Source: Lytechinus pictus (Eukaryota). Taken from it: a DNA stretch of 64,000 bases. Positions 30,701-60,670 of this stretch are shown here, one piece after another (position 1 is the stretch's first letter; the number at the start of each line of letters is the position of its first letter). The notes beneath the pieces are model-generated. The model saw only the letters and a list, made by a program, of their open reading frames with translations. It was not told where the DNA came from and made no database searches. A program made the position numbers and the translations under genes. Location of the stretch: assembly GCF_037042905.1 (NCBI RefSeq), contig NC_087250.1, positions 23,066,001 to 23,130,000 of the forward strand, read 5' to 3'.

Positions 30701-30746
<46 letters not shown>

Positions 30747-36407: not shown

Positions 36408-37372
36408 ATATATTAATATTTTGTATCATTATCAAAATTAATAGTTGAAGTTAATTTTAATTACGGTACTTTACGATTTATATTCAGTGTTAATTATTCT
36501 TTGATAAAAGGGCTTAAACCTAAATTTAAAATAAGGTAATATATCTTAATGTTATTTTTTTTCATTAATGAAGATAGTTTGGAGGAGAGAACATGGCATC
36601 TTAAATTCTGCAAACGAATAAGAGTAAGGCTGGTATATGAATCGATTATATGATTTTCTTTTTTTTTTCAAAATAAATAGATGATGGTTGATATGAGTAT
36701 TTACAAGTATGATGCCATGGCCGAGTTAGCCTCTTGTCAAGGCCCTTGTGGGTGAATTTATATCCTAATTTGCGAAATGAGTTGGGAATATCTGGGTTGC
36801 TGATGCTTGCCAGAATTCAACCGCCAGGGCCTCGATAAGAGGCTATGGCAGACATTGGCAGCGGAAGGCAAAAAATTTAAGGGGGGTCCACCTAAAATTT
36901 TGGAATGGACACAGGTAAAAAATTTGAGAAGCAAGAAAAAAAAAAAAAAAGGGTTACCAACCAAAATTTTAGGTGGGGGGCCACAAAAAATTTAGGGGGG
37001 TCCACCTGAATTTAGGGGGGACGCAGGAAAAAAATTGACAAGCAAAAAAAAAGCCCCCTAACAGACGCGTGGAAGTTCGGGGTTCGATCCCCGGCTATGA
37101 CACATAAGCCCACTAGCAAGGCATCTAAAAACAATATACAAATGATTAATATTCATGGAGCAATGCAAAATATGCTCATGCTATGCAGTGCAAGCTCGGT
37201 CCGTTGATTGTTGCTTACATACAACACGCGCGATGCAATCACGAATATTTTACTTGAGGTGCCTGCAATCTCAGTGCGCGCGTGCAATGGACAAAATAGT
37301 ATGGATCCAAAGTTGCACGGATGATGACGTCATTGTAAAATGGGCTGAATGATCGATATCCATAGAGAGGAC

Positions 37373-37535
37373 GTGCCGTGGCCGAGTGGTCTAAGGCGCC
37401 TGGCTATACATGGAAAGTCCGGAGTTCGATCCCCGGCTGCGGCAAGGCAAATCTACAATGCTCTTTTATCCTGCTTTCAAATAAATGGAAATGCTATATG
37501 CATTATTGGTAACTAGGTGTGCACTTGTTTAAAAA
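37373..37535 (+). mobile_element. Short tRNA-derived SINE family 'gtgccgtggccgagtggtctaagg' (copies also at ~39618, ~43450, 44852-45032, 49064-49252, 56341-56523(-), 58810-59441(-))
   Basis: A box TGGCCGAGTGG, B box GTTCGATCC, shared tail aatgctcttttatcctgctttcaaataaatggaaatgctatatgc + A-run. Confidence 0.8.
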
Positions 37536-39063
37536 TATATATATATATTATCTCGATGAGTCTATGTCGATATCAAACAACCAATCAAATGACAAGGATA
37601 TATTATCTAGGTGTCATAAAATGCGTTTTAACCTACATTCAAATAAATGGAAATTTTCATACATATTCTAAGTAATAAATTAGTGTGCACATGTCTTAGA
37701 AAAGAGAAGGAAGTTAATAAGAACAAAAAAGGGCTATTCAAATATGACGTCATTTCATTTTTATTTACTACTACCACTACTACTACTACTGTCACCACCA
37801 CCATCACCACTACTACCAGGGGCGGATCCAGGATTTTCCAAAAGGGGGGAGGGGGCATATTTCCCCGAGGAAAAATTTGACAATCCAAAAAAAAAGGTCT
37901 TCATTTTCAAAAGGGGGGGGGGCACACTTCTGTTTTAACGGCATTTTTACATTACATGCCCCCCTGGATCCGCCAGTGACGACGACTACTACCAGTACTA
38001 GTACTAGTACTACTACTTCTACTACTACTACTACTACTTCTACTACTATTGCCACCACCACAATCACCACCACTACTGCTACTAATAACAATGATAACAA
38101 TAGAAATAATAATGTTAATAATATCATGATGATAATAATAATAATTAAATAGTAATAGTAGTAATAATAATACTAATGATTAATAATAAGTTTGTTTATA
38201 TGGCGCGTCGCGTCTGTAAGTGCATCATTCCGGTCATCAGAGGCAACATAAAGGTTATTGCTATAATGGAATGGCCTATCAAGATCATCATTGCATGCGC
38301 ATATTGTTCAGTACACTGACTATGAACCAATCAGAACTGTTGTTTCAAAAGTATGAGGTAATCCGAAGTAGAGTAAGTCTCATCGTTGCACACGCATATT
38401 GCTCAGTAGACCGACTCGGAATCGATCAGATTGTTCTTTCAAATTAGCGATTGATCGCTAACCTTTGTGGTACGGTGTCAATATCCTTGCACGCCCGCAC
38501 ACAATGTGTACTCTCCACACCATGGGGAGCATTCTACCCGAAAGGTTTTCAAAACCCCACTGCTAGGCATACTACAGAGGCTTTCGCATCCACCGGGTAC
38601 CCATTTTGGGTTTATTTCCAATTTGTCTAATGCTAATTCGTCCAATTGCCAACTCGTCTACTATCATTTGGTCTACCATCAGTTCGTCCACTCAACACAT
38701 GGTCTACTTTCATTTAGTCTAATGCCATTCCATCTAATAACCAGTTGGTCCAAATTCGTCCAATAACCATTTAGTCCTTATACCATGTGGTCTAATTAAA
38801 TTAAAGTATTTTATTGTGCAAAATGAATGAAAGAAAATGGTAATAGACGAACTGGTGACTAGACGAAGTGATGATTGGACCAAATGGTTGTTAGACGAAA
38901 TGTTGATGGATGGAATGGCATTAGACTAAATGAAGGTAGACCATGTGGTGAGTGGACGATACACCTGGGTGGAGAGTGGCAAGGTGCGGATTGACGTGTT
39001 GCACAGGACAAAGTGGCAGGCGGACCATTGCTAAGTTGTGATATTTTGCTATCATCATGGCAA

Positions 39064-39196
39064 GGAGAGATGCCTAAGCACTACTCCATTCAAAATTAGA
39101 CATGACACTCCGTATCCAAACCAACCTAGTCAGAATGGTATACAGAGCTCGCTGACAGTGCTTAGCCGGCATGCTGTGTGACACCAATCAGGTAAT
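39064..39196 (-). ncRNA. Candidate Sm-class snRNA-like gene A
   Basis: CUCUGUAU-A-CCA-UU-CUGAC UAG GUUGG-UU-UGG-AUACGGAG hairpin, Sm site AAUUUUGA (39090-39097), 3' hairpin GGAGUAGUGC UUAG GCAUCUCUCC; CTAACC and AATCGATT upstream. 5' end approximate. Confidence 0.72.
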
Positions 39197-39504
39197 AATA
39201 TAATAATATATAATTAAATTATATTATTTTTAAAAGGTTAGCCTGCAAACAAATCTATTCTTAGATATGAAAGTTGGAGGATTAAATTCACTTTGACTGA
39301 AACATTTAAAATAAAAAATAAATATTTGTATTAATATATATGCATCAAACATAATTTTTTTAAAGGCATCCCCCTTTGGTTGGTAATGTTGGCACGAGAA
39401 AAAATACCTACGTAATCGATTCTGGATTAAAAAAAATAATAATCGGAGATCAAAAGAGGCAATCGAATAAGGGAAGATCCGAGTCTGCAAGCACAGTATG
39501 TGTG

Positions 39505-39620
39505 GGTGGGTGGGTGTACGAGGGTGTTTGGAGGTGGGTGGGTGTACGAGGGTGTTTGGAGGTGGGTGGGTGTACGAGGGTGTTTGGAGGTGGGTGGGTG
39601 TACGAGGGTGTTTGGAGGTG
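39505..39620. repeat. 28-bp G-rich minisatellite (~4 copies)
   Basis: Unit ggtgggtgggtgtacgagggtgtttgga. Confidence 0.85.
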
Positions 39621-40140
39621 CCGTGGCCGAGTGGTCTAAGCCTCTGACTATACATGGAAAAGTATTTCCCCTTCTACTAGCTTGTTTTTTTCCTCTCCTT
39701 TCCTTTAAAAACTTTTGTTCATTTGGGATGGATTTCCGTTAATCCAAGCTTTATCAATTTTCGCGTGAAACCAATGTTGACTGGAACTATACAGTGCGTC
39801 CCAGAAAAAAGGAAACCAAAATTCAGTGTAATTTGTTACCATCATAATTATGAATGTGCTTCATGAGATGTATATCTATTTAAAGATATAATTTCCCTCT
39901 TCATTATGAAGCCCATCTCAAAGTTCTTAATACACGCATGATTGAGTTAGAACAAATTTCCATTTGCAAGAGCAAATTAAGAATTTGAGTGAGTTTTTTC
40001 TGGCTTTTACTGTTATGTATTCGGAAAATAAAGTCTATTAATTTTAATATTCATTTGTTCATCTTTCATATGAGTCTTCGTGCTTGAAAGATTATACAAA
40101 TAATTAATGCACGTAAGCGCGTGCATGCAGGGCTGATTAA

Positions 40141-40534
40141 AGAGAAATGCCAGTAGTTGCAGTAAACACTGATTTCATGAGAAAGTCTGTAAAACCAGGC
40201 TTAATTGTCAGTATATCATCGAGGATCTAGATCTGGTACAGTTACACAAACTGAACTTTGTGAAATCTTGAAATCTACGCTGAAAAATGTTCACACTGAA
40301 GATCACCAACACAGATAGGCACACGTGGGACAGTGTATTATTATTGCTTGAATAAAGACCCGACGGAAGTGACCGAATCCGCGCTTATTTTGCTTATTTC
40401 TCAGCAATTACACAATTTCTTCCAGAATCCTTTGGCACATATTTTTTATTCATACAAACTGACACTTGGGTGGTCATTATATAAGATTCTGTAAAAAGTC
40501 ATTTTGAGATCGTTACCAGAACTGGAATTTATCT
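40141..40534. mobile_element. TTAA-flanked MITE (second Kolobok-like family)
   Basis: ttaa|AGAGAAATGCCAGT...ACTGGAATTTATCT|ttaa; shares its right TTAA with the next MITE. Confidence 0.6.
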
Positions 40535-42225
40535 TTAAAGGACAAGTCCATCCCAACAAAAAATTGGTTTGAATAAATAGAGAAAAATCCAACAAGCAAA
40601 ACACTGAAAATTTCATCAAAATTGGATGTAAAATAAGAAAGTTATGAAATTCTTAAGTTTCGCTTAATTTCCCCAAACAGTTATATGCACATCCTGGTTG
40701 ATATGCAAATGACGGGACTGATGACGTCACCCACTCACTATTTCTTTTGTATTTTATTATATGAAATATGAAATATTCTGATTTTTTCCCCCTTGTCATG
40801 TGAAATCGAGTTTTGTTTCTTCCTGAACATGTGGAATGAACATTGTTTAACATTATGTGGTTCAGTAAAGTTGGTCCTAAATGTCAAATTTGTAAAAATT
40901 GAAATATTGTATAATTCAAACAGTAAAAATCAAAAGAAATAGTGAGTGATGGACATCATCGACTCTCTCATTTGCATGTTACTGAGTTGTGCATATAACT
41001 GTTTTGTGAAAAATAAGCGAAACTTTAAAATGTCATAACTTTCTTATTTTACATCCGATTTTGATCAAATTTTCAGCATTATGCTTGTTTGATTTTTCTC
41101 TATTGATTAAAAGCAACATTTTGTTGCGTGTATGTTTGTTTTATACACTCCTCCCCTTGTAACTGAGTTGCCCCGAATGCTATATTTGATCTAATTTCTA
41201 GATAAATTATTCTAGATAATTCCCGACCTCGCACATAGCACATTTGATATGACGTCAGAGTGCGGGATAGTGCATTTTGGATGCCATAATGGAATTCGCT
41301 GAATATCATGTGATCCGATTTGGACCAATCAGATTACAGAACATTCTTGGGAGATGTTAAGATTGACGCATTGTCGAGTAAAAGTTGCATGAAAACATGC
41401 TTTATTTTCACTTAAAAGCGGCAGACAATGGGCTACCGGTAAAAGCGCTGAATGTGATTTTATGGTTGGCTTGAGTATTATGTTTGAATTTTTGTAAGAC
41501 TCGTAAAAAAAATGCTTGAAAGTGTGAGATGAGGCAGGGGCGGTGGATTGATGAAGGAGGGGGGGGGGTGACCCACTTAAAGAAAAACAAGAAAATGGCT
41601 TCAGTCTCCCTTTCAACTGTAAAAAAAAGTGATGTACCCCTTTTCTGTTGCGCCCCGCCCCTGCAAACATATTCTGCCGTCTCTTTGAAATTTAGCACGA
41701 ATAAAACGACTGACAGAAGTTTGAGATAAAACTTATCAAAATGATTAGCAGTGTAGCATTGAATTCTAATCATAGCTATAGACTCCAGTCCGCAACAATG
41801 AAGGGATGTTCTTCCCCGGCCCGAACAGCATTCACCATTAGCCGATTGTCTCCTGTTTTTAATCAAACGAACGTCCCGTTTTCACACGATCCATCAAATA
41901 GGTAGATTTCAAGCATGTTTTCATGCAGCTTTTACTCGACCATGCGTCATTCATATTTTATGCATAAGGTCTCATATGTAAGAGGAAAAGATGGATTGTT
42001 TTTGTTTTCCGAATAGCCAGTAAAAGCCAGCAATAATCACTCAAAATCATAATTTGCTCATGCAAATGAAAATTTGGTACCACCACTTTTCATTGTTGTA
42101 ACTCAGCCACGCGTGTATTATGAACGTTGAGATGTGTCTCAATTGAAAAAAGAGATGTATATCTTTCATTGATGTACATTTAATGAAGAAAACTTATCAA
42201 TTATTACGGTAAAAAGTATTACGGT

Positions 42226-42565
42226 GGAAGCGCCGTGGTGTAGCGGGTCTGACTCCCGCATTGTAATTAGAGGGTCGTGTGTTCGAATCCCACCATGGCC
42301 TAGCGTCCTTTAGCCAGGCGTCAATCCACACTTTGCCACTCTCACCCAGGTGTTAAATGGGTACCCGGTAGGATATGAAAGCCTATATGTAGTATTCCTA
42401 GCGATGGAGTCTTGGAACTCTTGTTGGAATGCTCCCCAGTGAGTGGAGAACTGTGCATACATTGTATGCGGGCATGCAAAGATCCGATGACCGGGGTAAT
42501 AATATATCTGTAAAGCGCTTAGAGACATTGTTCCGATGTGTTATATCAATACGGAATATTATTAT
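42226..42565 (+). mobile_element. tRNA-derived SINE
   Basis: gccgtggtgtagcgg...gttcgaatccc head; core atccacactttgccactctc.acccaggtg; related to the 46427 copy. Confidence 0.8.
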
Positions 42566-43015
42566 TTAAAAAGATACACTGAATTCATGTTTCCTTTTTC
42601 TGGACACACTGTATATTCTTTAAGAGTCTACACAGTGCTTCCCCTTTTCTAAACGAAACTTCCTGGAATTTACTCTCAAAGTTCTTGGATTTTTACAAAA
42701 TATCCGGAATTTTACAAAATTAATGTTCTCCAGTCTTCCATAAGTTATAATTCTGTTCTGTACACACACACAAAAAAATGAAATATAGGGCCCAGTGCCG
42801 TAATTGAGCCAAAAATTTTGAGGGGGCGAAACATGACGTAACGGGCAAAGTTTAGAGAGTTGCGAGCGAGCAAACATGTTGATATATTAATTAAAGAGAT
42901 CCAATTTCGTGATAGATTTTGACATATTAATTCAGAAAATAGTATTTTTTTCCGAAAATGATAACTTCCTGGATTCCAGGGAGAGTGTATTGCATCTATG
43001 TCTTGTCAGGGATGT

Positions 43016-43162
43016 AGGAGTAGTGCAGCAGCATTACTCCTTCTAAAATTGTTTGGTTGTTCCTCCTGTCCGATCCGACCTAGTCAGAACGAACAGGAGT
43101 CGCTGATCTTAGCCCGAAGGCTGAGCGGCTGGCCTGGCTTTGGCTTGGATAAGAATGTTGAT
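43016..43162 (-). ncRNA. Candidate Sm-class snRNA-like gene B (U2-like 5' segment)
   Basis: CUCCUGUUCG-U-UCUGAC UAG GUCGGA-U-CGGACAGGAG hairpin, AAUUUUAG, 3' hairpin AGGAGUAAUGC UGCU GCACUACUCCU; AATCGATT at 43383-43390. 5' end approximate. Confidence 0.72.
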
Positions 43163-44271
43163 AGAAACACTTAATATTCATTAAAAATTTACTTTTAAAA
43201 AGTAGTTATTTTATTTGTGAACATGAGATTTGGAGTGTGACAGTTGTTTTGTCTTCACTTTAACATACTTCATATTTATGTGTATATTTAAAAAATTCAA
43301 ATGACATTAAAATGTTACGATGTCTTAATGAAATTGTATGAATATACTCATATTGTATTGTTTGCTTGCTCTGCTAATCAATAATCGATTCCTGAGTAAT
43401 GAGCAATCGATTATTTCTCCAGAATGAGTCATTTGGCCTTTGCGCTGACCCTACTAGACACATGAAAAAGTCCCGGATTCGATCCCCGGCCACGACACTT
43501 ATATCAATCAGTGAGCAAGGCATTTAATCAACAATGTTCTTTGGTCTGTATTCAAATGCTATACTCATTCTTGATACCTTAGCTACACATATTTATGATA
43601 TTTTAGTTACACAGATTTCCTACATTTTAAAATTATTTTGTATCACGTCTCAATGATAAATATAATTTTGTTCATATTAATTTTTTTAAATAAATATAAT
43701 AGAAAAAACTCTTGTTAGATAATTTTAGTGCTGACGTTACAAAAATGTGTGTTTCCTGTGCATGTCAGCATTCTTTTGTACAATATTTCGGTAAGAGTGT
43801 GATGAAATGATGCTGAAATCGGATAGTGCAATGATACATTGATTTAAATGGGGCTTTCAGGCTAATTATGCATTCATGAAGTAAGATCTGAAGCCCAAGA
43901 AAACAAATCTGTGAGAACACTAAAATACTGCAATAGATATCAGGTCAAGCATTGTCCGCACCCGGACTTAGATTTGGTTTGGACGGGGGTGTGCGGGGTG
44001 GTTCAAAACCCATACCCATATTTACGGGTCATTTTGGCTGAAAAGGTACCCATTATTAAAATTTGACAAAAAGAAAGGTTATCACCCAAAATTGAAGGAG
44101 AATATGGATCCATGTTTAAGGCCAGTATCTAAAAATTGGGGCCATGGACCCATGTTTAAGGCCAGTATCTAAGAAGTGGGGCCATGTTTAGGGATTTTCC
44201 AGCATAAAACCATATAATAACCCATGTATAGGGATTTCTTCCAAAAAAAGCGACCCATTCCAGTGGCACAT

Positions 44272-44485
44272 TAGTCCAGATTGGACCTTGTTGTTTGGAA
44301 GTGCCCTTTCCCAAAGCTAACATAGAGGGCACATGACTCCCGATCTCTAATCAGCGCCAATCCACTCATCTTCCTTGGGGAGGGAAGATGAGTGGATTGG
44401 CGCTGATTAGAGATTGGGAGTCATGTGCCCTCTATGTTAGCTTTGGGAAAGGGCACTTCCAAACAACAAGGTCCAATCTGGACTA
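44272..44485. mobile_element. Palindromic MITE, TAG...CTA termini, 9-bp TSD (Academ-like or MULE-like)
   Basis: Near-perfect ~100-bp inverted arms; GTGGCACAT duplicated at 44263-44271 and 44486-44494. Confidence 0.8.
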
Positions 44486-46164
44486 GTGGCACATCCACGT
44501 ATGCCTTATTTCGTGAGTACCCCCCCCCCCCCCGGGTGTCCGCAGGCACTTGTAATGCAAAGTAGAAACAACAAAACTATAGTAAATTATTGCGTGATAC
44601 AACTGGTTACGTAATAGGTACTTATGTAAAAATTGTATTCGCATAGAGATTCAGATGTTGGTGTATATAATCATTTTTAAAGGTAAATGACAGTTGTTGC
44701 AGCAAATAATTATTTCATAAGAAAGTATTTTAAATCTAGGTTAATTATTGTCAAAATACTATCCAACATCTCGATCTGGTACATTAATGTAAACTTATCT
44801 TTGTAAAATCATGAAATCTTATCTCAAAATCGATAATTCTGATGATCTGATGAGGTGCCGTGGCCGAGTGGTCTAAGGCGCCTGGCTATACAAGTCCGGG
44901 GTTCAATCCCCGGCCGCGCCACCTATGCTGTGAGAAGGCTTTTCATCTACAATGCTCTTTTATCCTGCTTTCAAATAAATGGAAATGCTATGTGCATTAT
45001 CGGTAACTTGGTCTGCACTTGTTGAAAAAAAATCACTAACACAGAAAAGCATATGTGGGACAGTGTATTAATATTGCTTCGAAAAATGTCCGACATTTGA
45101 TGGAATTCCATATTTATTTTGCTAGTTTCTCAACAATTACGCATTTTCTTCCGGAGTCATTTCGCACACATTATTGAGCAAAGTTTCAATACAGTCGTGA
45201 ACCTGCCGACCATCCGTGACCTGGCCCGTGTTTCATCAACATTTTTGTGTAACAAGTTGTCAGATCTGACAACTTTCCTTGATTCTGATTGGCTGAGAGG
45301 CACTGTTACTATGGTAACTGTCGGATAAAACGTCTGACAAGTCCTTTATTGAAACGCTTCCCTGAAATCTATTGTGGTATTGAACATCCTCACATAAATA
45401 GTGTGTCAGCTCATGTGTCGGTGTCGGAAGGATAATTCTTGCCAAAATTCATATTAATGATTATATATAGGGCAATTATCTAACTTTATTTAAACTATTG
45501 TATTATTGCCTGGTGTAATCCAAATACCTCATTTATAAACAGACTTTTTTTATTGCATAAAATGCTGTCCGTATTATTACAAAGTCCTCTTATCTTGCCA
45601 ATTTGAAACCACTTTTTCCTCTTATTATTTCAGATTTTGAATATTTATGATTTAAATCTCTATAATATTGGAATTTCTATGTATCTTTGTTGCAGAAATA
45701 AAATTCCAATTCAAATGAAAAAAATCAATTCGAGTCTGATTTTTCACATTGTAATACAACATCATCCAGCAAATATCATTTTCCCCAAACAGCTCAAAAT
45801 TGTCTATTTTCTTTTAAGGTCCAGAAATATGGAACAATATTGAAAAAATTGTAAGAGAAAAAAAAACTTTGAACTCATTAAAATTTGATAAAAGATTGGA
45901 TTTTCCTGCATGTGTATAAAGTGTGTATGTGTCTGCATTAAGTTTAATTGTAAATTATTCAAAGTAACCACTACTTAAATTTACTGTCTCATTACATTTA
46001 AATGTTTAATATTGTATACACATGACTGTGCACTTGCTGTTTGTAAGGGAATAACCTTTGTAAACAAGTTTGCTTTTGCTATCCCGGCCCATCCACTTTA
46101 TTATAATAAGCTGTCTTGGCACACTTGTGGAATAAAAAAAAAAAAGAAGATTATTCATTCGTTG

Positions 46165-46276
46165 GGAGAAATGCCGAAACACGCCTCCATTCAAAATTAC
46201 GATCGTCTGCGCCTTCTACGACCTAGTCAAAGATGGCGTGGTACTGTAGCTATGAGCCACGCTAACAGCTAAAAAT
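46165..46276 (-). ncRNA. Candidate Sm-class snRNA-like gene C
   Basis: CGCC-A-UCU-U-UGAC UAG GUCG-U-AGA-A-GGCG, Sm AAUUUUGA (46191-46198), 3' hairpin with UUCG tetraloop and G-U pairs; AATCGATT at 46843-46850, pushed out by a SINE. Confidence 0.7.
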
Positions 46277-46426
46277 GAAGTTTTAATCAATTAAACCTGT
46301 TATTCAATAATATAAGATATGTTAACAAGCATAAACTCAATTTGCTGTATTTTTGGTGTAATTAAATACACTGTATTAATGTTGTATCTTTTTAAATAAA
46401 AATATGCAATGACTATTATAAATAGT

Positions 46427-46785
46427 GGAAGAGCCGTGGTGTAGTGGTTCAGACTCTCGCCTTGTAAACAGAGGGTCGTGTGTTCGAATCCCATCGCGGT
46501 CTAGCGTCCTTTGGCAAGGCGTAAATCCACACTTTGCCACTCTCGACCCAGGTGCTAAATGGGTACCCGGTAGGATGCGAAAGATATTGTATGTTTGATT
46601 TTGCCAGCGCCATAATGAGGCTGCGATGAATGCAAGGAATGCTCCCCAGGGAGTGGAAATTGTGCACTTTTCGTGTGGAATTGAATGAATCCAATGACCG
46701 GGGTAATAATATGCTGTTACGCGCTTTGAGCCATTCTGAAAAAAGCGCTCTATAAAACTTGGCTGTTATTATTATTATTATAAAT
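46427..46785 (+). mobile_element. tRNA-derived SINE inserted in the promoter region of snRNA-like gene C
   Basis: A/B boxes (tggtgtagtgg; gttcgaatcc), core shared with 42226, (TTA)n tail. Confidence 0.8.
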
Positions 46786-49493
46786 AATTGATGAATAAAT
46801 CATTAGTTTCAGTCAGTATTCTTATTCAAATATACCTGAAGTAATCGATTCTAGTATATGAAATTTGCCTTTATCTATACGCCGATTAACTCTTTGCACG
46901 CTGTATTACTTTTGGGGAATGACAATGACAATTGTTTCCATGTAATTTTACTTAATTTAGGATTTCCATATTGCACCATTGATACTTATTATTATATCCC
47001 TCTTATGAATATTCATGAGTATTCTAGATAAAAGATTGGTCAATTCTTTCTTTAACTTTTGTTCACAATCATTCGTTTTATTCTCCCATAGTCGTGATAA
47101 GGCGTGATGGTTGTAAAACATATTCGGTAATGTTATGTTAACCAGCTGGCGACTCATGATTTTGCTGTAACAAATGTTTTTATTATTAATTATTTTGTTT
47201 TGTTTTTTCTATCGACTCTAGCCAGCATACCAATTTAAAGAGTACAAATAAATTTCATCAGAAAGGACAATTACAGTATACACACATGTAAAGGAATATG
47301 GGAGCGTTATGCGGGTCGGGAGGGGGCACAAAAGTGAAATTCAGCACTGTTGCCTCTCACACATGCCACTCCCATGACATACATCAAATCAAGAAGATCT
47401 CCTTGATCAAATATATTATTCTCTTACACAAAATATTGCACATTGAAAAGTAGGGATGCAGGGGAAGGCGGTGGGGGGCAAAGAAAAAAATCATCGGCTT
47501 TTATGAAAATTCTAAGATGGCCACCACAGTTTTACAAAAACTCTGGTGTTGAGTTAACACCAGCCCGGAATCTATATATGCCCACACAAGAGAAGTGCTA
47601 ACAACACCATTTTCGTTTTGGTCTAACATCAGATACTTGTTTATACAACACCAATTTGATTCCAAAGGGGAGATGTTGCAATACTTCTCTGATGTGGACA
47701 TATAACGATTACGGGCTGGTGTTAAATCAACACCGGAGTTTTGGCAGTGTAACTGGACACTTCAAGCAATACAAAAAAATTTGTTTAAATTTTCTCTGAG
47801 GGTACACGGGAACTCCTTTTGCGACTAGACGAGCTCATAAATATTGGAGAAATAATATTACATTAACATGACTTTGTATAGCGCTTGTTTAGAGTTGTTT
47901 ACACTTAGTTTTAGATGTAAAAAAAATTGATAAACGATATATGGTTTCAATTTTGACTTGTAGATAGTGAATGATGGAGAGCTTGTTATGTAAATTGGCA
48001 AGCTATTCCATAGATTAGGGGAAGTAAGAGCAAATGCGTGATCGACAAGTGTGTCGTTTGCTGTTTGCAATATTATTATTATTGTTAGTATTATTATCCA
48101 TTAATTTCATCATTACTATCATTATAATCCATTATTATTACTATTACCATCATTATTATCATTATAATAATAATAACAATTAATATTATCATTATTATCA
48201 TACTTTTCATGTCCATGCTAATCATGTACATTTGTAAATATTTCCCGATATTCTGAACATTATTGACTCATAAATTTTATACATTGTAAATATTTTTCAT
48301 TATTCTGAACATTTCTGGACACATAATGTGTATGATTGAAATGTTATTGATGATACTAATCCATAATATTAACTGATAATAATTGGTAATATTTCTGATG
48401 TCATCTGGTATTTTTCTTAGTTTCACTCGGTCATAATAAAATTAAATTTAATGAATACAAAGTGAAGTCGATTGCAATTTACAATAGATGATTTGTATTT
48501 AACTTATTATTAATTCAGTTATTTGTCAAATTCTTCTGTGTAGCTTACTTTCCTATCTAATCGTAGACAAGCTCTTGCAGAGTGTCAATCAATAATAAAG
48601 CATTCAATTGAGATTCAAAACAGCTTGGATAATGTCCACAATCAAGTCAAATTACTGCATTATTTTTTTCTTTTCTTTTATTATTCATATTGCAATGAAT
48701 CAATTCAAATGATAATTGCTGATTGATCCATGTTACATTTGTTTCGCCAAATAAATTGTTGCCGGTTTAATTTGTATACTTTTAATTCATATGTTTCTTT
48801 GTATATTCTTATACTGACCTGGATGGAGGTAAAGGGGTGTGGGAAGGAAGACCTGTGGGTCATGGTAATTTAGTTAACCTTTTCCAAACGCAGGCAGCCC
48901 CTTCATCTCTATTCCAGGTCCTTTGTACTATGTCATGTATATCCTATTGTTTATGTAATTTGCATTGTACTGTAATTTATGTTTTTTGAAATGCCGAATG
49001 AATAATAATAATAGTTCTGATTTCTTAATAAAAAAAAAGTGATCGATACCCTTATCACATGTGGAGGTGCCGTTGCCGAGTGGTCTAAGGCGCCTGACTA
49101 TACATGGAAAAGTCCGGGGTTCGATCCCCGGCCACGGCACCTATGCCCGTGAGCAAGGCATTTAATCTACAATGCTCTTTTATCATGCGTTTAAATAAAA
49201 GGAAATGCTATATGCATTATTGGTAACTAGGTGTGCACTTGTTTAAAAAAAAGTCCGGTACAGCTTTGTACAGATTGGACAAAACAGTAATCGATTAATA
49301 CCGAGGGAATATTTTCAAAGTTTTAATCATATTTAAACTTACAAAAACCCCGTTGTAGTTACTAATATATAATTTATTTGATTGCACTCTGAAAATGTAA
49401 TTTAAAAAAATATGTAGGGTAGCAAAAAAAATCAATTTATTACTAACTATAACGATTTTATGCTTTAAATTAAATATTAGCAAATCTTTGAAG

Positions 49494-49575
49494 ATCCCAA
49501 GCAACTGCATTTAGTGCCAATATTGTATATATTGGAAATTTTGGCAGGAGGTATTACCTAGTGTATCTGCCTCCT
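49494..49575 (+). ncRNA. Candidate Sm-class snRNA-like gene G (short type, + strand)
   Basis: CCAAUAU UGUAU AUAUUGG hairpin, Sm AAUUUUGG (49537-49544), 3' hairpin AGGAGGUA...UGCCUCCU; CTAACT at 49443 and AATCGATT at 49289-49296 upstream. Confidence 0.6.
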
Positions 49576-51215: not shown

Positions 51216-52144
51216 TCGTGTACATACAACATACGCGCTGCCAACACGCATAGACTAATACACACAATTTCTTGCATCATGATACAATGCGCTTTTGGTG
51301 TTACCCCGGATTTAGATCGAGCTACCATCACCGGCGCTCAGTGCATGAAAGGAATTAATCCTGCCGGGTACCCATTTACCTCACCTGGGGCCCGTTTCAT
51401 AAAGCTGTTCGTAAGTTAAGAGCGACTTTAAGAACGGCTGGTGATCCTTTCTTGTGGTAAACGATGTTCACCATTAATAATTATTTAGCTCGTAAGAAAG
51501 GATCACCAGTCGTTCTTAAAGTTGCTCTTAACTTACGAGCAGCTTTATGAAACACCCATCTGGGTTGAGTGCAGCACAATGTGGATAAATTTCTTGCTGA
51601 AAGAAAACACGCCATGGTTAAGATTCGTACCCACGACCTCTGTTTGAAAGGCGAGTGTCAAAGTTATTATTCTCATCATCATCAATTTTATTATTATTAA
51701 CATTATTATTAATATCATTATCATTGTTATTATTATCAATATTATTATTGTAAATGTTATTATTATCACTACTGTTGCTGTTTTTATCATTATTAAGATC
51801 AATATTATTATCATACTTTCATGTCCATGCGAATTATGTCCCAGTAATGTGTGGAGACTACACATTACTTTCTGATGTGATCGATACCATTATTACAATC
51901 ATGTCCGATACAGGTTTGTACAGATTTGATGAACAATAATCGATTCATACCCTGAGAGTATTTTCAAACTCAAAATCATAATTAAACTTAAAAAAACGAC
52001 TATGTAGTTGTCAATTATGTTTAAAATTATTTATTTTATTGCACTATGGAAATGAAATAAACTAAAACAATATCAATGATAGCAAAAGAAGTTTTAAGTT
52101 GATACTAACTATGACAGTTTTTGCTTTAAAACAATTATGAACAG

Positions 52145-52228
52145 ATCTTCACCTCTCTATTTACCACTCTAGGCGACACGCCTATTATTTATTTTGGCAG
52201 GAGGTAGCACTTCTGAAAAGCTACCCCC
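52145..52228 (+). ncRNA. Candidate Sm-class snRNA-like gene H (short type, + strand)
   Basis: UAGGCG ACA CGCCUA hairpin, Sm-like AUUUUGG (52191-52197), 3' hairpin GGAGGUAGC...GCUACCCCC; CTAACT at 52105, AATCGATT at 51938-51945. Confidence 0.55.
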
Positions 52229-53594
52229 AAATGTTCCAACTCTTCATCAGGAAATCTGGAGGAAGCAAAGTAATATCTCAGTATCATTTGCCCTACGACA
52301 GCTGTACGCCGGGTCGAAAAGTCGTTATAACATTTCTTATCAGCTACATGTAGTAACAAAGAAACCGCGTAGCAAGGATTTCAATTTAGAGGGCGGTAAA
52401 TGCACGCGAAGCAGGGAGTGCAGGGAGGGGGAGTTTCCTCCTCCAGCGCAAAGCTTTCGGTGTTTCATAAATTAAAATGAAAGAGAGCCGCCTTTCTTGT
52501 CTCTAGTACTTATATCAGCTCCAATTCAGTTGACTTTGTTGTGATTTTGAACCTTGCTTTCAAAAGTGATTGTGAACGCACAAAAAAAGGGATAAAATGG
52601 AGGAAATTAAAACAAATTATTACCCCGCGAGAAGCGCGGAAGCTTAAGCTTTTTATCAAGCTTTTTTCCAAAGAAAATGGTCCCGAGGTAAGGGTATTCT
52701 CTAAGTTATATTGAATGCTTCCCTTGGAAAGATCAGATTTGATTACAAACAATTTAGCGACAGTGCATATCTTTAACTCGCAAAACAAAGGAGAAGAAGG
52801 GTATATGCCGGTAAGAACATTTTCCTCCCTGCGCAGAACAATGAAACTCTGAAATTTCAAAGGGCGGACGATTCATCAAATGCAGATATCTCTGATACCC
52901 CCATCGGCTCGAATTCAATTGGATTTTCTAAGATTATTGAACTTCATTACAAGGAAAATAGTGCGCAAAAAGTTGAAACTTCTGTGATTTGTTGAAATCA
53001 TATAAAAAAGCCTGATGTATAATTTCCTTGACTTATCATTAAGCGCTTCATTTTGAATGATAAAGAAACTTTAGTGTTATTCAAAATTTCAAACTGAGGG
53101 CGTAAAATAGGACAGGAGATGAATGTGAAGGGAAATGACATGAAGTTTGATAGAATTTGATAAAAAAATATTATACTTTTTTTTATTAAATACGACACGA
53201 ATTTTATACCATCCTCTTTGTAAATTAGGAACCTGTTTGCCCCCAAATTATGGTTGTTTAGTAATAAGCCTTCCCAATGCCTGAAACCAAGTGAACTTTT
53301 CTTTCTTACCGATGAATCAAAATGCTCTTTTGCCGATTTAACTCTACGTCATAATAGTTGCCTGGACTTTACTCATTACGTCACAATATCTTCTAAAAAT
53401 GCACCTGTCGCGTTATGTTGTTGCGGATTGTATTTATTGTGCGTTGGTATCATCACCAAATGATGCAACCTGTTTTGGATAATAAAATCATCCCTGAAGA
53501 AGGTCTATGACCGAAAATTCGGAAGATTATGTCTCCTCACGGCGTTTCTATTACGTCTTCTTTTGTTTATATATATATATATATACATATTGTG

Positions 53595-54005
53595 TGAAAG
53601 AAATGGATGAAGAGAACAATGGTAGGCGTAGCTTAAATCAAGGTTCCCCAGAGCTATCTACCCTTTGGAAAAATTGGTGATGCCGAAAAAATGTCTCTGC
53701 CGGGAATCGAACCCGGGCCCCCAGCTTTGAACGCCGGTGCCCTAACCACTAGACCACAGAGACGGGTTAGTGGCTAGGGCGACCCCTATCAGATTGACCG
53801 TCAGATAGACAGATTTTCGACACTATACAAATTATAATTTCCTTTGTCGGGTGAAGGTGGGTTTTGAACAAAGCTGGGGGCCCGGGTTCGATTCCCGGCA
53901 GAGACATTTTTTCGGCTTCACCAATTTTTTCAAAGGGTAGATAGCTCTGGGAAACCTTGATTTAAGCTACGCCTACCATTGTTCTCTTCATCCATTTCTT
54001 TCACA
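53595..54005. mobile_element. tRNA-containing element with ~135-bp inverted duplication, in (TA)n
   Basis: 53595-53729 is the near-exact reverse complement of ~53869-54005; flanked by (TA)n runs. Confidence 0.65.
53692..53763 (-). tRNA. tRNA-like cloverleaf (tRNA-Glu-like body, UCA at anticodon position) inside a repeat element
   Basis: GTCTCTG/CAGAGAC acceptor stem, A box TGGTCTAGTGG, CCGGC/GCTGG anticodon stem with loop GT-TCA-AA, T arm CCGGG TTCGATT CCCGG, then T6. G32 is non-canonical. Confidence 0.5.
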
Positions 54006-54057
54006 AATATTGAAATAAAAGAGTTGCCAAAGCTGTTGTACATGTATAACTTCACAC

Positions 54058-54120
<63 letters not shown>

Positions 54121-54127
<7 letters not shown>

Positions 54128-54312
54128 GAGGCAAAGTGTTTTGTACTTAGTTCCAACAGTTTATTTTGAATTCCAAATTTTCGACGTTAGACATACGTCT
54201 TCTTCAGGGATAAAGCTCCCTGAAGAAGACGTATGTTTAACGTCGAAAATTTGGAATTCAAAATAAACTGTTGGAACTAAGTACAATGCATTACCACTTT
54301 GCCTCATTAATA
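54121..54312. mobile_element. Penelope-like element remnant: inverted duplication with hammerhead-like core
   Basis: ~90-bp arms around a 6-nt spacer; each arm has CTGAAGA-A-GACGT...ACGTC-GAAA; embedded in (TA)n. Confidence 0.6.
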
Positions 54313-55880
54313 TCTTCTATGTCCAACACGCGGAACTCAATATCGTCATATATATATATATATATATATATCCATTCTGGAAGCTTCTAGTATTGTCTTT
54401 AAAAAGAACATTCTGCTTCTTTTTAGAGCAATCCTAATTCTATATAGAAGACTCTTGAATGACCTCAGTGAAATTAACAATGTAAACAACATAGCTAATC
54501 CTATTGTCCTTTTCCCCTGCTAGCAGTCTATTGTCTATTGTCCATTGTACATTTCAAAAATACCATACATTACTCAGCCTCATTTTTACAAAGCTTAATT
54601 GAGGCATTCTGGAATATTCTTATTACGCAATGAACTTCTTAGAGAAAAAAAAAACTACATGGATGAATGTAATTTCTCTTCCAATTCTTCTTATACATAA
54701 CACTACATAACACCAGTTGTTGCTACACGCATTCTTGCTTTAAACAGGGACGTGAGACGCCCCTGCTTTAAATATAAAGGGGGAGTGAACTGTATGTGGT
54801 CTCTCATTGACTATGTGTTATGAATACATAGTCTTAAAATGTACTTTTTCAGATATCTAATAATACTACAGAGAATAAATTGACCTTTACTTGTATTTGT
54901 TTAGAGAAACTAAAATGTTTTGAGAGGAAAAGTAATTGTTTTGCTGACTGGTAACATAATTATTGCGGTATAAATGTACTGAGTAGTTATTATAGCATGT
55001 CATTATTCATGTGGGTCTATATTACTTGACTACACTAGCATTATGGGTCAGGAAATTGGCCAGGTATGAGTAGTTGAGGACTCGAGGTGGCGCTATTGGT
55101 TCGTATCTGCTTTAAATGAAAACATTTTAAAGGAAAATATGAATAATCAAGACATCAGCGTCGGTGCTTATCTCATTGAATATTAAACCACCATGCCACT
55201 AGAGTTCCTGAGCTTCTTCTGATCATGCGCAGAATAGAACTCCTAACTGGCTTGCTGCAGTCTACAGAGTGGATTTGGCGCTTGAAAATCACATATGTAT
55301 TATTAAATCAAGGTTTGACAATACCCTTGTACACTTAAAGGAAACCAGAACCCAAGAGAAGAAGCAATCTTATTGGAAAGAGTAAAATGAGAGGAACAAG
55401 TTAAAAGAGCTTCATCAAAATCGGTTATGAATAATAAGCAAGTTATGGACGTTTAACAAGTCTTGTTGTACTTTCTATGGCGATCCTCAAATTGGCAAAC
55501 GTGCTTCTAAATGGCTGATTTTGCGGACAACTCTCCATTTGTTTTGTACACAAATTTTCAGATTTCCCCCCTTTATTTTACATATTTCACTTTATCTCCT
55601 CCTGACCTTGACATATGTGATGAGAATTATATTTTCCCATGACACATTTTGTGCTCATAATTGCAAGATGCAATTTGAAAGATAATGAGGAAAATCTGAA
55701 AATTTGTGAACAACACAAATGGAGAGTTGTCCACAAAATCAGTCATAGAAAGTACAAGACTTTTTAAACGCCCATAAATTGCTTATTTCATAACTGATTT
55801 TGATAAAATTGTTTTTAATTGTACCTCTCATTTTACTCTTTCCAATTATCTTGCTTCTCTTTTACGGTTTTGGGAACATT

Positions 55881-55997
55881 TCGGAGAGGTGCTGGCGCAC
55901 TTCTCCGATCAAAATTTGCCCGTATCCGACCTGACCTAGTCAAATCGGCATAAGGGAGCTCCGGCGTTTGCTTAGGCTGCTCAGCCTGCCCATAGAT
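55881..55997 (-). ncRNA. Candidate Sm-class snRNA-like gene D
   Basis: CCGAUUUGAC UAG GUCAGGUCGG hairpin, Sm AAUUUUGA (55909-55916), 3' hairpin UCGGAGAAGUGC GCCA GCACCUCUCCGA; CTAACT begins 50 nt upstream of an AUC; AATCGATT at 56215-56222. Confidence 0.75.
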
Positions 55998-56039
55998 TAT
56001 AAAGAGATTTTTATTTATTTAAAATTAAATAATTTTTAA

Positions 56040-56322
56040 AAAGTTAGTCGCTAAAAGGGTTACAATTATATAGATTAAAATTTTCGATAGTAATTCTAGA
56101 ATCAAATTGTTTTTAAATTTTCAATTCTGAGATTTTTCAAATACAATCCAAATAACTACGCATGAATGTAGTTTTTGAAAGGTATTATGGTTGCCCCCCA
56201 AAATATGATTTTATAATCGATTTAGTCCTTTTTTAACCTATCAAACAAAGTCAGATATTAGACAGCATGTACAGACCCTATTGAAGTTTTTATCAACACG
56301 TGGGTCTTCACAAAAGACTAAG
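56040..56322 (-). promoter_or_regulatory. Putative snRNA-type promoter of gene D (PSE-like CTAACT + distal AATCGATT block)
   Basis: Blocks alignable by eye with the regions upstream of E and F (ctatc.aacaa, acagaccc, ttgaa..ttt.tca.cac.tgggtctt, aaagact). Confidence 0.6.
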
Positions 56323-58079
56323 TCATAGTCCATTCCATAATTTTTTTTTGAACAAACAAGTGCACACCGAGTTACCAATAATGCATATAGCATTTCCATT
56401 TATTTGAAAGCAGGATAAAAGAGCATTGTAGATTAAATGCCTTGCTCACGGGCATAGGTGCCGTGGCCGGGGATTGAACCCCGGACTTTCCATGTATAGC
56501 CAGGCGCCTTAGACCACTCGGCCATTCCATAAAATGTTGCTTTGAATCAATACAGAAAAATCAACAAGCATAACGATAAAAAATCATAAAAATCGGACGT
56601 GAAAGTAAGAAATTTCTGATATTTCATAGTTTTGCTTAGTTTTCACAAAACAGTTATTATGCACAACGCACTGACATGCCAATGAGAGGGGGGTCGATGA
56701 TATCCCTCACTCACTTTTTTTTATTGTTTGAATTACAATAATTCAAATATATCAAGTTTTACAGATTTGACAAAAAGGACCTGAACCATAAAGTGTTTAA
56801 AAAATAATAATTCCACATGTTCAGTGAGGGATTAAACTTTGTTTCAAAGGACAATGAGGAGAAAATTATTCATTTTCCATGTAATAAGATACAAAAAGTG
56901 AGTTGGTGACGTCATCAGTTACCTCATTTGCATACCGACATATTTTGTGAAATTAAGAGAAACTTAAAAATGTCATAACCTTCTTACTTTATAACAGATT
57001 TTATTGAAAATGTCAGTGTTATTGTGGTTGGATTTTTCACTTTACTCAAATCGACTTTTTTGTTTGGGTGGACATGTACTTTAAATTAAAAGAAAGAAAA
57101 TGGCGCACTTAGCTCCTTTGATCGCTTTCAACTGAATTATTGATACTTAAAATACATCTACAATCATACAAAAAGTCAAGTCCACCCCAGAAAAACGTTG
57201 ATTTGAATCAGTAGAGAAACATCCAACAAGCGTAATGTTGAAAATTTCATCAAAATCGGATATAAAATAAGAAAATTATGACAGTTCAAAGTTTTGCTTA
57301 TTTTTCACCAAACAGTTATACGCACAACTCAGTGACAGGCAAATCAGAGAGTGATGTCCGTCAATCACTATTTCTTTTGTTTTTATGGTTTGAATTATAC
57401 AACATTTCATTTTTTACAAATATGACAAAATTGATAAGGACCAACTTGATTGAACCATGCTAATTGCACATATTCATGGTAAAATAAAATTTCTTCCACA
57501 CGAGGAGAAAAATAAAATATTTCCAATTTTATATAATAAAATAGAAAAGAAATAGTGAATGGGTGACGTCATCAGTCTTCTCATTTGCATACAGACCAAG
57601 ATGTGCATAACTGTTTTTTTTTCTTTTATTAAGTGAAACTTTAAAATGCTATAACTTTCTTATTTTAATTCCGATTTTTATGAAATTTTCAGTGTTATGC
57701 TTGTTGGATTTTTCGCTTTCTATTCAAATGAACTTTTTGTTGGGGTGGACTTGTCCTGTAAGGGAATGATCGACTTCAACCTTGGGTTTATCACTATACC
57801 TGTATACCTTACCCTAACCATGAAACCCTATTGCAACCTTATTAACCCTAATACCTTTGTCACATTTCTTCTGAGGCGGCTTCAAACCACCTATAATGTG
57901 GCAGGTACAAAACAAAAAAACATGTTAATACGACTGTCTTCGAGCAAATGTGACTGAGGAATTATCTTATATCCTAGAGGAAAAAAAGCATAGAGCGATC
58001 AATAATTGTCGCCGGAACAAATGTCGTCGGAATAAATGTCGTGACACTTGATGGCTGATAAGGAAATTTTCACTATACA

Positions 58080-58197
58080 GGAGAATGCTATCGTAGCATT
58101 CACCCGACCAAAATTTCAGTAGTGTGGCTCCGTATCCGAACGACCTAGTCGGACGGACCGGAGCCAGGCTCCACTACACTTCACAAGTATCAATGAT
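58080..58197 (-). ncRNA. Candidate Sm-class snRNA-like gene E
   Basis: GUAGUG..UGGCUCCG-G-UCCG-UC-CGAC UAG GUCG-UU-CGGA-UA-CGGAGCCA-CACUAC long stem, Sm AAUUUUGG (58108-58115), 3' hairpin GAAUGCUA CGA UAGCAUUC; CTAACT at 58238-58243, AATCGATT at 58445-58452. Confidence 0.75.
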
Positions 58198-58235
58198 GGC
58201 GAGAAGAATTTATACAAATATATTATTTTTTTTTT

Positions 58236-58556
58236 CTAGTTAGCGTGCTTTAGAAATTGTTTGTTAATATATAGGTTAAAAGTTTAGATTTTTTTGAATT
58301 ATTACTGTTTTAATTTCTAAACAAAAAAATTTCGTGAAAAAATTTGCAAAAAAGATTAAAATAGCTATGATTGAATGAGACATTTTAAAGGTATCGTGGT
58401 TGACATTTCATAAAATAATATCGATAATAAAGATAAAATAATGGAATCGATTCTTTTTTTTCTATTTAGCTATCGAACAAAGTGAAGAGCCTAGTCTGCA
58501 TGCACAGACCCAATTGAATTTTTATCAACACAGGTGTCTTAAAAAAAAGACTAGAA
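58236..58556 (-). promoter_or_regulatory. Putative snRNA-type promoter of gene E
   Basis: Same ordered conserved blocks as D and F. Confidence 0.6.
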
Positions 58557-58937
58557 CATATATTAAAGGTCGAAATCACTCAAGAAAAAAAAGTGGATTT
58601 GAATCAATAGAGTACTACGATATTAAATATCAAACAAATAACCAAAAAATTAGATTATTTGGCTATTTTTTATTTACAGGAAATAGAGCACAAAGTAAAC
58701 AAAATAATTATTATATTAATAAAAAAATATGATAATCCAAATAATCCGTATTGGCTGGCAAGAAGTTCTTTATCAAAAGTCCACAATGCTGGCGATGATG
58801 AATTTTTTTAACAAGTGTACACCTCGTTATCAATAATGCGTGAAGTATTTCAATTTATTTGAATGCAGGATAAAAGAGCACATGTGCTGTGGCCGGGGAT
58901 CGAACCCCGGACTTTCCATGTATAGCCAGGCACCTTA

Positions 58938-59416
58938 CCGCCCTTTCACAGGGTACCAAACTCGTAATTTGAATGATGATTCCAGTGAAAAATAATTCTA
59001 ATTACGAACTTTTAGCACGTGTGAAACCAAACTAGAATCCCGAACGTTAAGCACAATCACGAATTCAAATTCTACTCCGGAGGTGAATTCCAGTTAAGTT
59101 TCACTCAAATTACGGTACGAAGTTTACGTCTGAAAGGGTTGACCTCCAAACAATCTTTTGAGGGGCGGAGCTTACGTGACCTTTCGAGCACTTCCGTAGA
59201 TAATACAATTTCATGCGCTCATCGTAGTTTCTTTTTTTGCGATGCAGTGCTTTGATTGGGTTTGATTGACAAGTCACCAAGGACACAATACCGCCTTCGC
59301 TCAGGAATTCGAATTCAAATCACAGTTTTCGAGTGAACTTGTGAGCGGGACAATGATTCTAAAGACGAAATGCAATCATCACAATGATGATTCACGATTC
59401 TCGTGTGAAAAGGCCC
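58938..59416. mobile_element. PIF/Harbinger-like MITE splitting a SINE
   Basis: TTA TSD, imperfect TIR ccctttcaca...tgtgaaaagg; SINE halves rejoin across it. Confidence 0.65.
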
Positions 59417-59639
59417 TTAGACCACTCGGCCACGGCACTTCCATTGATGTTGGCATACGATTTCAACACACCTTCCGATCTTATTGTTACTGTGTGTAAT
59501 TAAAGAGAGCAGGAGACAGATAGATATGAGATTATACAGTGAAAAGAAAAGTAGAAAGAGGGAAGGAGGGAAAGATAAATGTCCCCAAAATGCTTCTAGG
59601 ATAAAGGGCTGGGTCATACTCTCGGCTCAGCCAAAATGT

Positions 59640-59879
59640 ACACAGCAAAAACTCCGGTGTTAACCGGTGTACATAGTGGACCACACCAGTTATTTTACAC
59701 CGGTGTTAAATTGACAGTGTTAGTTTAACACCTATAGGTGTTATTATAACACCTTCGGTTATTACATTTACACTCTTTGGTGTTATGTTCAGTCTCTAGG
59801 GTGTAATTTTAACACCTCAGGGTGTGGTCCTCTATTAACACCAACTGGTGTCAGTTTTAACACCACAATTTTTACAGTG
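59640..59879. mobile_element. Short CAC...GTG (EnSpm-like) MITE
   Basis: tacacagcaaaaa...tttttacagtgta with internal ggtgtt/aacacc subrepeats; related copy at ~47505-47752. Confidence 0.5.
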
Positions 59880-60218
59880 TAGAACACTTGTACCAATCTA
59901 TTGCCAGAAAGTATTATGTAATACTTGTATTCATATATTGCGACGATTTCCAACTAAAGGTAAGTGATTAACATCTAAAGAGATCGAAAGGGATAGTTAT
60001 ACAATATTGATGAAACCACAGTTGCATAAATTATTGTTGCATATATTGCCAACAGTTCCGCGTTGACTGTGGGAACAAGCCATTTCAAAATCAATGAGTA
60101 TATCTTCTCTTTTTTCAATTTATCAAAAGCCATCAGGGTCACGTGTTACAGTAACGCACTTCCAAATGTTCGGCTCATGATCAGCCTGGATTGTTTGGGA
60201 AGGTAATGAAGAAATTCG

Positions 60219-60341
60219 GGAGAAACGCTAAGGCACTTCTCCGTTCAAAACTTGAGTATATAAGGCTACGCAACCGATCCGACCTAGTCAGATCGGCTTA
60301 TGGTGCCCCATGTCTGCGTTTGCACCTAATATATCTTGTAT
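60219..60341 (-). ncRNA. Candidate Sm-class snRNA-like gene F
   Basis: AGCCGAUCUGAC UAG GUCGGAUCGGUU hairpin, Sm-like AGUUUUGA (60245-60252), 3' hairpin GGAGAAGUGC CUUA GCGUUUCUCC; CTAACT at 60384-60389, AATCGATT at 60565-60572. Confidence 0.72.
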
Positions 60342-60381
60342 AAAATTCAAATTTCATATAATTAAACTATATTCTTAAAAA

Positions 60382-60670
60382 ACAGTTAGCGTAGCGTGCT
60401 ACGAAACATTCATTATCATTAAAATGGAAATATTTGATTATAATGCTAGATCAAAGTGTAATTTTTATTTTTGATTAAATGTTTTTCTCCAAAAGCATTT
60501 AAAAACACGCATAAACTATAGCATTATGATGTTAAGGTTGGCACTTGTACAAGTACCATATTATAATCGATTCATAATTCAAGCTATCGAACAAGGGCAG
60601 AGCGTAGTCTGGAGTTACAGACCCTAATTGAAATTGTTCTCACCACGTGGGTCTTGAAAAAAGACTAGAA
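60382..60670 (-). promoter_or_regulatory. Putative snRNA-type promoter of gene F
   Basis: Same ordered conserved blocks as D and E. Confidence 0.6.

Follow-up and report, generated by a model that had tools for sequence, protein, structure and literature searches.

The subject of this analysis is a 64-kb window (64,000 nucleotides) of the genome of the sea urchin Lytechinus pictus (RefSeq assembly GCF_037042905.1, contig NC_087250.1, positions 23,066,001 to 23,130,000 of the forward strand), and within it a bipartite element shared by nine loci, each with a short module that resembles a gene for a small nuclear RNA (snRNA). The element consists of a distal palindromic, CpG-containing word, AATCGATT, and of a CTAACT-like hexamer closer to the module. 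We named the loci A to I after their own AATCGATT sites, all of them exact matches (window coordinates throughout): A (36640-36647), B (39414-39421), C (43383-43412, comprising two copies that start at 43383 and 43405), D (46843-46850), E (49289-49296), F (51938-51945), G (56215-56222), H (58445-58452) and I (60565-60572). The palindrome itself carries no strand; E and F are oriented rightward (+), and A, B, C, D, G, H and I leftward (-). In the last three loci, the word belongs to a longer shared distal block on the minus strand (56215-56320 in G, 58445-58553 in H and 60565-60667 in I), which includes an E-box in G and I, while H has an extra TATCGATA at 58419. An earlier note on this DNA had listed the same nine positions and placed the word always upstream; every coordinate proved exact, and at each of the nine sites the word does lie upstream of a module with a U-tract and a hairpin. 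The locus letters of that note differ from ours, apparently such that our D is its C, and that our G, H, I and B correspond to its D, E, F and A.

Across the window, AATCGATT occurs 13 times against 2.59 expected copies, and at least 13 copies were reached in none of 100 shuffles. Markov models predict 1.2-1.6 copies at low order and 3.9-6.7 at orders 4-5, the latter background being inflated by the motif itself. Ten of the 13 copies lie upstream of the modules, counting the second copy in the locus C promoter (43405); the remaining three are at 5613, 7237 and 26071. When the 700-nt upstream regions were anchored on the U-tract rather than on the motif, AATCGATT was the sole 8-mer common to all nine (the next best was present in six), and none of 3000 random sets of nine regions gave an 8-mer present in every member. 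The ATCGAT core of the word is flanked by A..T at all nine loci. Within 120 nt of the motifs there are ten additional TCGAT/ATCGA words, some of them overlapping, against 2.8 expected, hinting at clustered sites. Those at 5613 and 7237 belong to an intronic tandem repeat with a 1.63-kb unit; two of its five units have the word, and three have AATTGATT in its place. As a candidate second array, with a U-tract and hairpin 200 nt away, these two sites were rejected, since they are intronic variants within a tandem exon duplication. The repeat occupies positions 1-7600 in near-identical units, each with an apparent sushi/CCP-type exon and a short interspersed nuclear element (SINE); it forms part of a multi-exon gene that, by eye, seems to continue to about 22,700 with lectin-like exons.

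The proximal hexamer reads CTAACC in B (39236-39241, -) and CTAACT in E (49443-49448, +), F (52105-52110, +), G (56042-56047, -), H (58238-58243, -) and I (60384-60389, -). A CTAACT-like hexamer had been claimed for every locus; in its strict form, CTAAC[TC], it stands in these six, whereas A, C and D have only loose variants, namely TTAACT (36449-36454, -; weak), ATAACT (43204-43209, -) and TTAACA (46320-46325, -; weak). The strict form is found in 1.3% of random 62-nt windows and in 2.9% of locally shuffled ones, and its presence is clearly non-random; on the mirror side of the palindrome, even the loose hexamer appears in just one of the nine loci. As a putative proximal sequence element (PSE), CTAAC[TC] in six of nine loci is suggestive only.

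At all nine loci, AATCGATT stands 154-209 nt before the hexamer and, as judged from predicted starts, in the range of some 200-260 nt before the start where a conserved distal element would be expected. Measured start to start in gene orientation, this range applies directly to eight loci, and the 154-202 bp given previously, a range that mixed strands, is close to it. The longer distance at D had been attributed to an inserted SINE, and rightly so: the two elements are 525 nt apart, and 163 nt apart once a tRNA-derived SINE of 362 bp (46425-46786, +) is removed, whose insertion duplicated a 10-bp target (copies at 46415 and 46777). The gap between the elements measures 146-201 nt, approximately one nucleosome, and vertebrate snRNA promoters likewise have a nucleosome-sized gap between their elements. 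The spacers have a GC content of 21-28%, against 40-54% in the bodies, and DNA as AT-rich as these spacers wraps poorly into nucleosomes. The hexamer is followed by 40-50 nt of DNA at 0-27% GC and then by the start of the body. The position of the hexamer at about -50 is itself a prediction, derived from possible starts 46-55 nt downstream.

The predicted RNA bodies are 76-148 nt long and GC-richer than their surroundings, and each has a U-tract followed by a 3' hairpin (9/9). Only six of the nine modules belong to a single alignable RNA family with a variable 5' part, a long hairpin, an ARUUUURR tract and a 3' hairpin; the hairpin apex, GACUAGGU, is invariant in all six. These are B (39063-39194, -), D (46163-46278, -), G (55881-56000, -; folding z -2.9) and H (58079-58196, -; z -4.6), which match the Sm consensus exactly, and C (43015-43162, -; z -3.9) and I (60217-60342, -; z -4.0), whose Sm sites have one mismatch. 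Two shorter RNAs, E (49490-49575, +; about 86 nt, exact Sm consensus) and F (52152-52227, +; about 76 nt, one mismatch in the U-tract), are paralogs of each other. The weakest member, A (36291-36407, -; about 117 nt, with a predicted 5' end), aligns with none of the others, has a U-tract one mismatch from the Sm consensus, and lacks the GACUAGGU hairpin. At eight loci, the U-tract and its hairpin are found at a distance of 249-341 nt from the motif, and D conforms once its SINE is taken out. None of the three outside sites has such a pair, for which the chance expectation is about 7% per site in a 240-345 nt distance window that was fixed after seeing the data.

A covariance model of the six-member family scored its members at 72-94 bits in the window, a recovery that holds by construction, the model having been built from them; the other 13 rows reached at most 18 bits, E scoring 8.8, and no further hairpin-family member without AATCGATT was found in the 64 kb. 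Among the 113 cells of the family alignment that should pair, 88.5% do so, a value equalled or exceeded by 11 of 500 shuffles. Searches with the Rfam families U1, U2, U4, U5, U7, U11, U12, SmY and SL (spliced leader) gave no hit at gathering score across the window, and no Rfam snRNA match appeared at E values up to 10 in the 35-62 kb interval or in loci C, H and A searched singly (three of the nine). A family pattern retrieved 60 metagenome loci with 23 distinct sequences, which we rejected as chance matches; the representative shown had neither the hairpin-plus-3'-hairpin layout nor an upstream AATCGATT, and viral contigs gave no hit. At the predicted 5' ends, B (39184-39200, -) contains UUACCUG and A (36400-36407, -) begins with AUACUCU; these recall the 5' ends of U1 and U5, a resemblance that may be due to chance.

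We then asked how far common descent accounts for the shared words. In global alignments of the motif-to-hexamer spacers, 35 of 36 pairs are at shuffle level and E/F alone exceeds z 3; local alignment finds homology (z >= 4) in four of the 36 pairs, namely E/F, G/H, G/I and B/I. The alignment of B, G, H and I has 256 gap-free columns, of which 72 do not vary; AATCGATT itself forms the longest invariant run, at 8 nt, and the next is one of 4. With deep identity set to 70, 65 and 60%, neutral simulations on a tree fitted to the B/G/H/I identities, without indels, preserved any invariant 8-mer in 28, 3 and 0 of 20,000 runs, respectively. The window supplies an internal contrast in the five near-identical intronic repeats, among which the word toggles at its CpG (kept in two, AATTGATT in three). 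The further blocks described for G, H and I are borne out by 77-82% identity in the distal ~90 nt against 47-61% in the spacers; B, said to share them partly, has 57-73% against 42-53%. Conservation is thus strongly uneven, whereas uniform flank similarity had been named in the earlier note as the pattern of neutral duplication. Because AATCGATT is kept beyond neutral expectation and conservation is uneven, passive duplication is an unlikely explanation. Judged by these comparisons, AATCGATT is most likely under selection, and the upstream DNA is, on its sequence, selected and promoter-like.

A single tRNA-derived SINE family shares the territory of the loci. Its nine pieces represent eight insertions, all within 37073-59441 and none in the first 36 kb (type copy at 49064-49252), unlike the other repeats, which are scattered throughout the window. 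Seven of the eight insertions, which occur in either orientation, are located upstream of an AATCGATT at a distance of 37-723 nt (P ~0.001 given 29% coverage by an 800-nt window picked after the data were seen). At least the copies at E and G are separate, later insertions, because the former is missing from the matching site of F and the latter has its own 11-bp target duplication. The clustering, seen in one window only, is what would be expected if the chromatin here were open in the germline or if the SINE were targeted to these promoters. As a side observation, the family may be a case of position-specific targeting near snRNA-type promoters. A well-formed tRNA-like gene also lies among the loci (53692-53763, -; Rfam 59.7 bits, anticodon UCA, T-run directly after it). 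ARAGORN calls it a selenocysteine tRNA, for which it lacks the long variable arm, and it may be an opal-suppressor-like gene or a SINE-related copy; an inverted duplicate of its 3' part and flank (97% identity) occupies 53869-54010.

That all nine units keep the eight-letter word, while most of the DNA around it has diverged past alignment, suggests that they are real genes for an uncatalogued small nuclear RNA or were so until recently. We consider it probable that the loci represent old genes, multiplied by local duplication, that encode small Sm-class-like nuclear RNAs, and that the shared upstream words are their promoter. The best reading of that promoter is an RNA polymerase II (Pol II) snRNA-type arrangement of PSE plus distal element, with a non-canonical distal word, that would drive a lineage-specific family; most likely, the layout is of a known kind, and the distal word and the RNA family appear new. 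The shared element had earlier been taken as independent support that the loci are transcription units: it speaks well for promoter-like DNA under selection, but falls short of proving snRNA-type transcription units. A look-up of sequencing runs for locus H (58040-58570), one of the nine loci, listed no RNA data set, which counts neither for nor against expression.

In the mechanism that we propose, a sequence-specific activator would bind the AATCGATT palindrome, which would act as a distal enhancer element; a CUT-class homeodomain protein is the best lead and a DREF/BEAF-like protein the alternative. The activator would help SNAPc to bind a PSE of which the hexamer is a part; together with TBP, SNAPc would then start Pol II some 47-55 nt downstream of the hexamer. 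We infer Pol II rather than Pol III because the T-run in each body, where Pol III would stop, precedes the conserved 3' hairpin. The RNA would then load an Sm ring on its U-tract. In the six hairpin-family RNAs, the long hairpin would display its invariant GAC-UAG-GUY apex for protein binding or pairing, while the 5' part varies; copies A and D may be decaying. A bolder version, which we put forward tentatively, holds that this is an actively transcribed urchin family of Sm-class regulatory snRNAs, expressed from gene clusters with their own enhancer word, AATCGATT, and through a factor unused by known snRNA genes, that six members couple the GAC-UAG-GUY apex to a variable, guide-like 5' segment, and that the open promoters attract one SINE family.

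Several observations weigh against the interpretation as snRNA-type genes, beyond the post hoc choice of the two distance windows mentioned above. The five-variant hexamer set is loose, since 8% of random windows of 62 nt contain one of its members, as do 22% of windows after local shuffling, and there is more than one candidate hexamer at A, D and H. A de novo 12-mer search of the nine upstream regions beat 15 of 15 shuffles, with sites in the hexamer register only for B, D and H. The hexamer, loose in three loci and not recovered across the nine by this search, is weaker than the earlier note implies, and its count overstates the evidence because paralogs are not independent. At A and C, a chance U-tract and hairpin also lie on the opposite side of the motif. 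The Sm consensus RAU3-6GR, taken from an excerpt of PMC2582628, is matched exactly in five loci and with one mismatch in four. The 3' box GTTTN0-3AAARNNAGA, a vertebrate consensus that is expected some 10 nt beyond the RNA 3' end and from which the urchin box may differ, is approached with two mismatches only in the flank of G and with four to five in the other eight; for comparison, 203 of 1,999 random 45-mers match it with at most two. Covariation in the six-member family is not significant, as three of 19 pairs change on both sides, which 144 of 500 shuffles equal, and a folding z below -2.5 was obtained for only four of the nine bodies (A having been folded 5 nt short). Among known distal motifs, the octamer, the cAMP response element (CRE) and the GC box were found near none of the nine AATCGATT loci and the E-box near two (G and I); a vertebrate-type distal element of octamer plus SPH/Staf was not seen, an ACTACA-type word being scattered across four of the nine.

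Some of these weaknesses would be expected of fossil promoters, that is, of loci that once were snRNA-type genes with this promoter and of which most or all copies in the cluster are now silent. At B, C, D, E and G, SINEs have inserted either within 40-200 nt of AATCGATT or into the promoter, which points the same way, as do the Sm mismatches at four loci, the lack of a 3' box and weak folding in five. However, the CpG-containing 8-mer is perfect at all nine loci despite saturated spacers, so that loss of function would need to be recent in every copy, and we regard this account as unlikely. Also unlikely, in our view, is that AATCGATT is a selected protein-binding site in units other than snRNA-type Pol II genes, for instance type-3 genes of Pol III whose transcription stops at the T-run, or enhancer or insulator modules with a DNA hairpin. 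The TATA-like AT-rich stretch from hexamer to body would suit such units, the T-run could serve as a Pol III terminator, the 3' box is missing and the identity of the hexamer as a PSE is unproven; yet the hairpin after the T-run in nine of nine loci and the 89% of paired cells in the six-member family are hard to explain if transcription ends earlier.

Passive homology, in which neutrally duplicated DNA has happened to retain the words and the likeness to snRNA genes is pattern-seeking in AT-rich sequence, could draw on the clearly recent common ancestry of the flanks of G/H/I and of E/F and on the frequency of the loose hexamer set in shuffled windows (22%), but the neutral simulations, no more than 28 of 20,000 of which retained any 8-mer, largely refute it, the strong non-uniformity of conservation adds to this, and we give it very little credence. 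An old non-autonomous mobile element, with the palindrome, the CTAG-tipped hairpin and the terminal hairpin conserved as enzyme-recognition sites, would accommodate the mixed orientations of the modules, and the ends of transposons typically carry palindromes and hairpins. Against it, the six model matches and all nine modules lie within 24.5 kb, with none in the other 39 kb of the window, the alignments show neither shared ends nor target duplications, and the sites of an element decay as fast as its spacer after insertion, which makes this origin improbable. Finally, the six hairpin-family RNAs might be spliced-leader-like donors, with AG/GU at the apex as the 5' splice site and the variable 5' part as the leader exon. 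In all six, the first loop ends with an invariant AG/GU, which precedes the U-tract by 17-28 nt, and SL RNAs, as described in excerpts of PMC3795323, carry a donor, an Sm site and stem-loops. The same excerpts give known junctions as GGTA and leaders as 22-25 or 36-39 nt long and conserved within a phylum, and do not accept echinoderm candidates; here, the base after AG/GU is C or U, and the 5' parts, counted from predicted starts, are 52-83 nt long and unalike. We therefore rejected membership among spliced-leader RNAs, for which the GGTA junction and a short conserved leader exon are wanting (AG/GUY in six of six, with variable 5' parts), and consider even a donor of this general type highly improbable.

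The remainder of the window contains other features of note. To the left of the cluster, exon-like stretches at 31360-31510 (-) and 34680-34770 (-) appear by eye to belong to a membrane transporter gene and offer a possible synteny anchor. Duplicates of 350 bp with 82% identity occupy 35887-36228, just downstream of locus A, and 54772-55116, where no A-like module adjoins by eye. A near-perfect palindrome of 220 bp, with arms 95% identical, lies at 44269-44488. Long microsatellite arrays of GAT/GGT type and of ATC, in opposite orientation, span 13070-14373 and 30639-31323, and a fragment that looks by eye like the reverse-transcriptase region of a non-LTR (long terminal repeat) retrotransposon lies on the minus strand at 62940-63900.

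Set beside known systems, the proposed snRNA-type promoter is familiar in layout. The metazoan Pol II snRNA promoter, as outlined in an excerpt of PMC2582628, has its PSE at -55 and a distal sequence element at -220, and the likeness to this scheme pointed out in the earlier note is upheld by the spacing. In both, two elements stand about 150-210 nt apart, and some 50 nt separate the proximal one from a short structured body that includes a U-tract; the loci described here differ in having AATCGATT instead of an octamer or SPH/Staf as the distal word, and in the absence of a recognisable 3' box. By its letters, AATCGATT is not a known snRNA distal element. The sea-urchin U1, U2, U6 and U7 promoters studied by the Marzluff and Busslinger laboratories share the two-element layout, and an E-box occurs at two of our nine loci. 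Their own distal elements, going by published descriptions, are not AATCGATT. That of urchin U1 is reportedly a CRE, and AACT is said to be the critical core of the urchin U6 PSE. Urchin PSEs reportedly have minimal sequence similarity to one another, to go by the title of a paper on them, which fits the weak hexamer here; no urchin PSE sequence was found in the literature searched. The urchin U6 distal element is an E-box bound by USF (bioRxiv 2023.01.09.523328, in excerpt), and the Drosophila PSE consensus ends in CCCAAct (PMC1796607, in excerpt).

As for the distal word, its ATCGAT core is also that of the Drosophila DNA replication-related element, which, by the title of a paper, is said to be TATCGATA, and the difference lies in the A..T flanks of all nine copies here. 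To our knowledge, neither a CUX1/CUT-class nor a factor that binds this element has been named as an snRNA activator. The CUX1 consensus, ATCRAT in an excerpt of PMC2248751, covers the same core, the A..T flanks again setting our sites apart. The literature searched held nothing on an ATCGAT-type core-promoter motif in urchins, no echinoderm report of a novel snRNA with an Sm site, and no description of the RNA family or of AATCGATT, although absence from print is not thereby established, the urchin promoter papers of 1986-1996 lying outside that search.

Animal Sm-class RNAs form a short list, to which few extras such as the fly LU have been added. If our reading is true, several genes whose products combine a constant core with variable 5' ends, and which have an enhancer word of their own, would amount to a new class of deuterostome small nuclear ribonucleoprotein; the motif pair could be used to look for the family in other urchin genomes, and its two parts would be precise targets for embryo reporter and CRISPR work. 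Among established snRNAs, U5 has a similar succession of a long 5' hairpin with invariant apex, an Sm site and a 3' hairpin, and sea-urchin U7 genes are likewise clustered (PMC5054213, in excerpt); the RNAs predicted here differ from both in giving no Rfam match to U5, U7 or any other snRNA at E values up to 10. By layout, the closest described RNA seems to be Drosophila snRNA:LU, which in PMC4053861 is a lineage-restricted Sm-class RNA of 116 nt with a PSE and with stem-loops flanking its Sm site, as modelled here, and has no known function and a possible derivation from U5. LU is single-copy, intronic and experimentally shown (PMC4053861), whereas the Lytechinus loci are nine clustered, diverged paralogs known from sequence, six of which, unlike LU, share an invariant hairpin apex.

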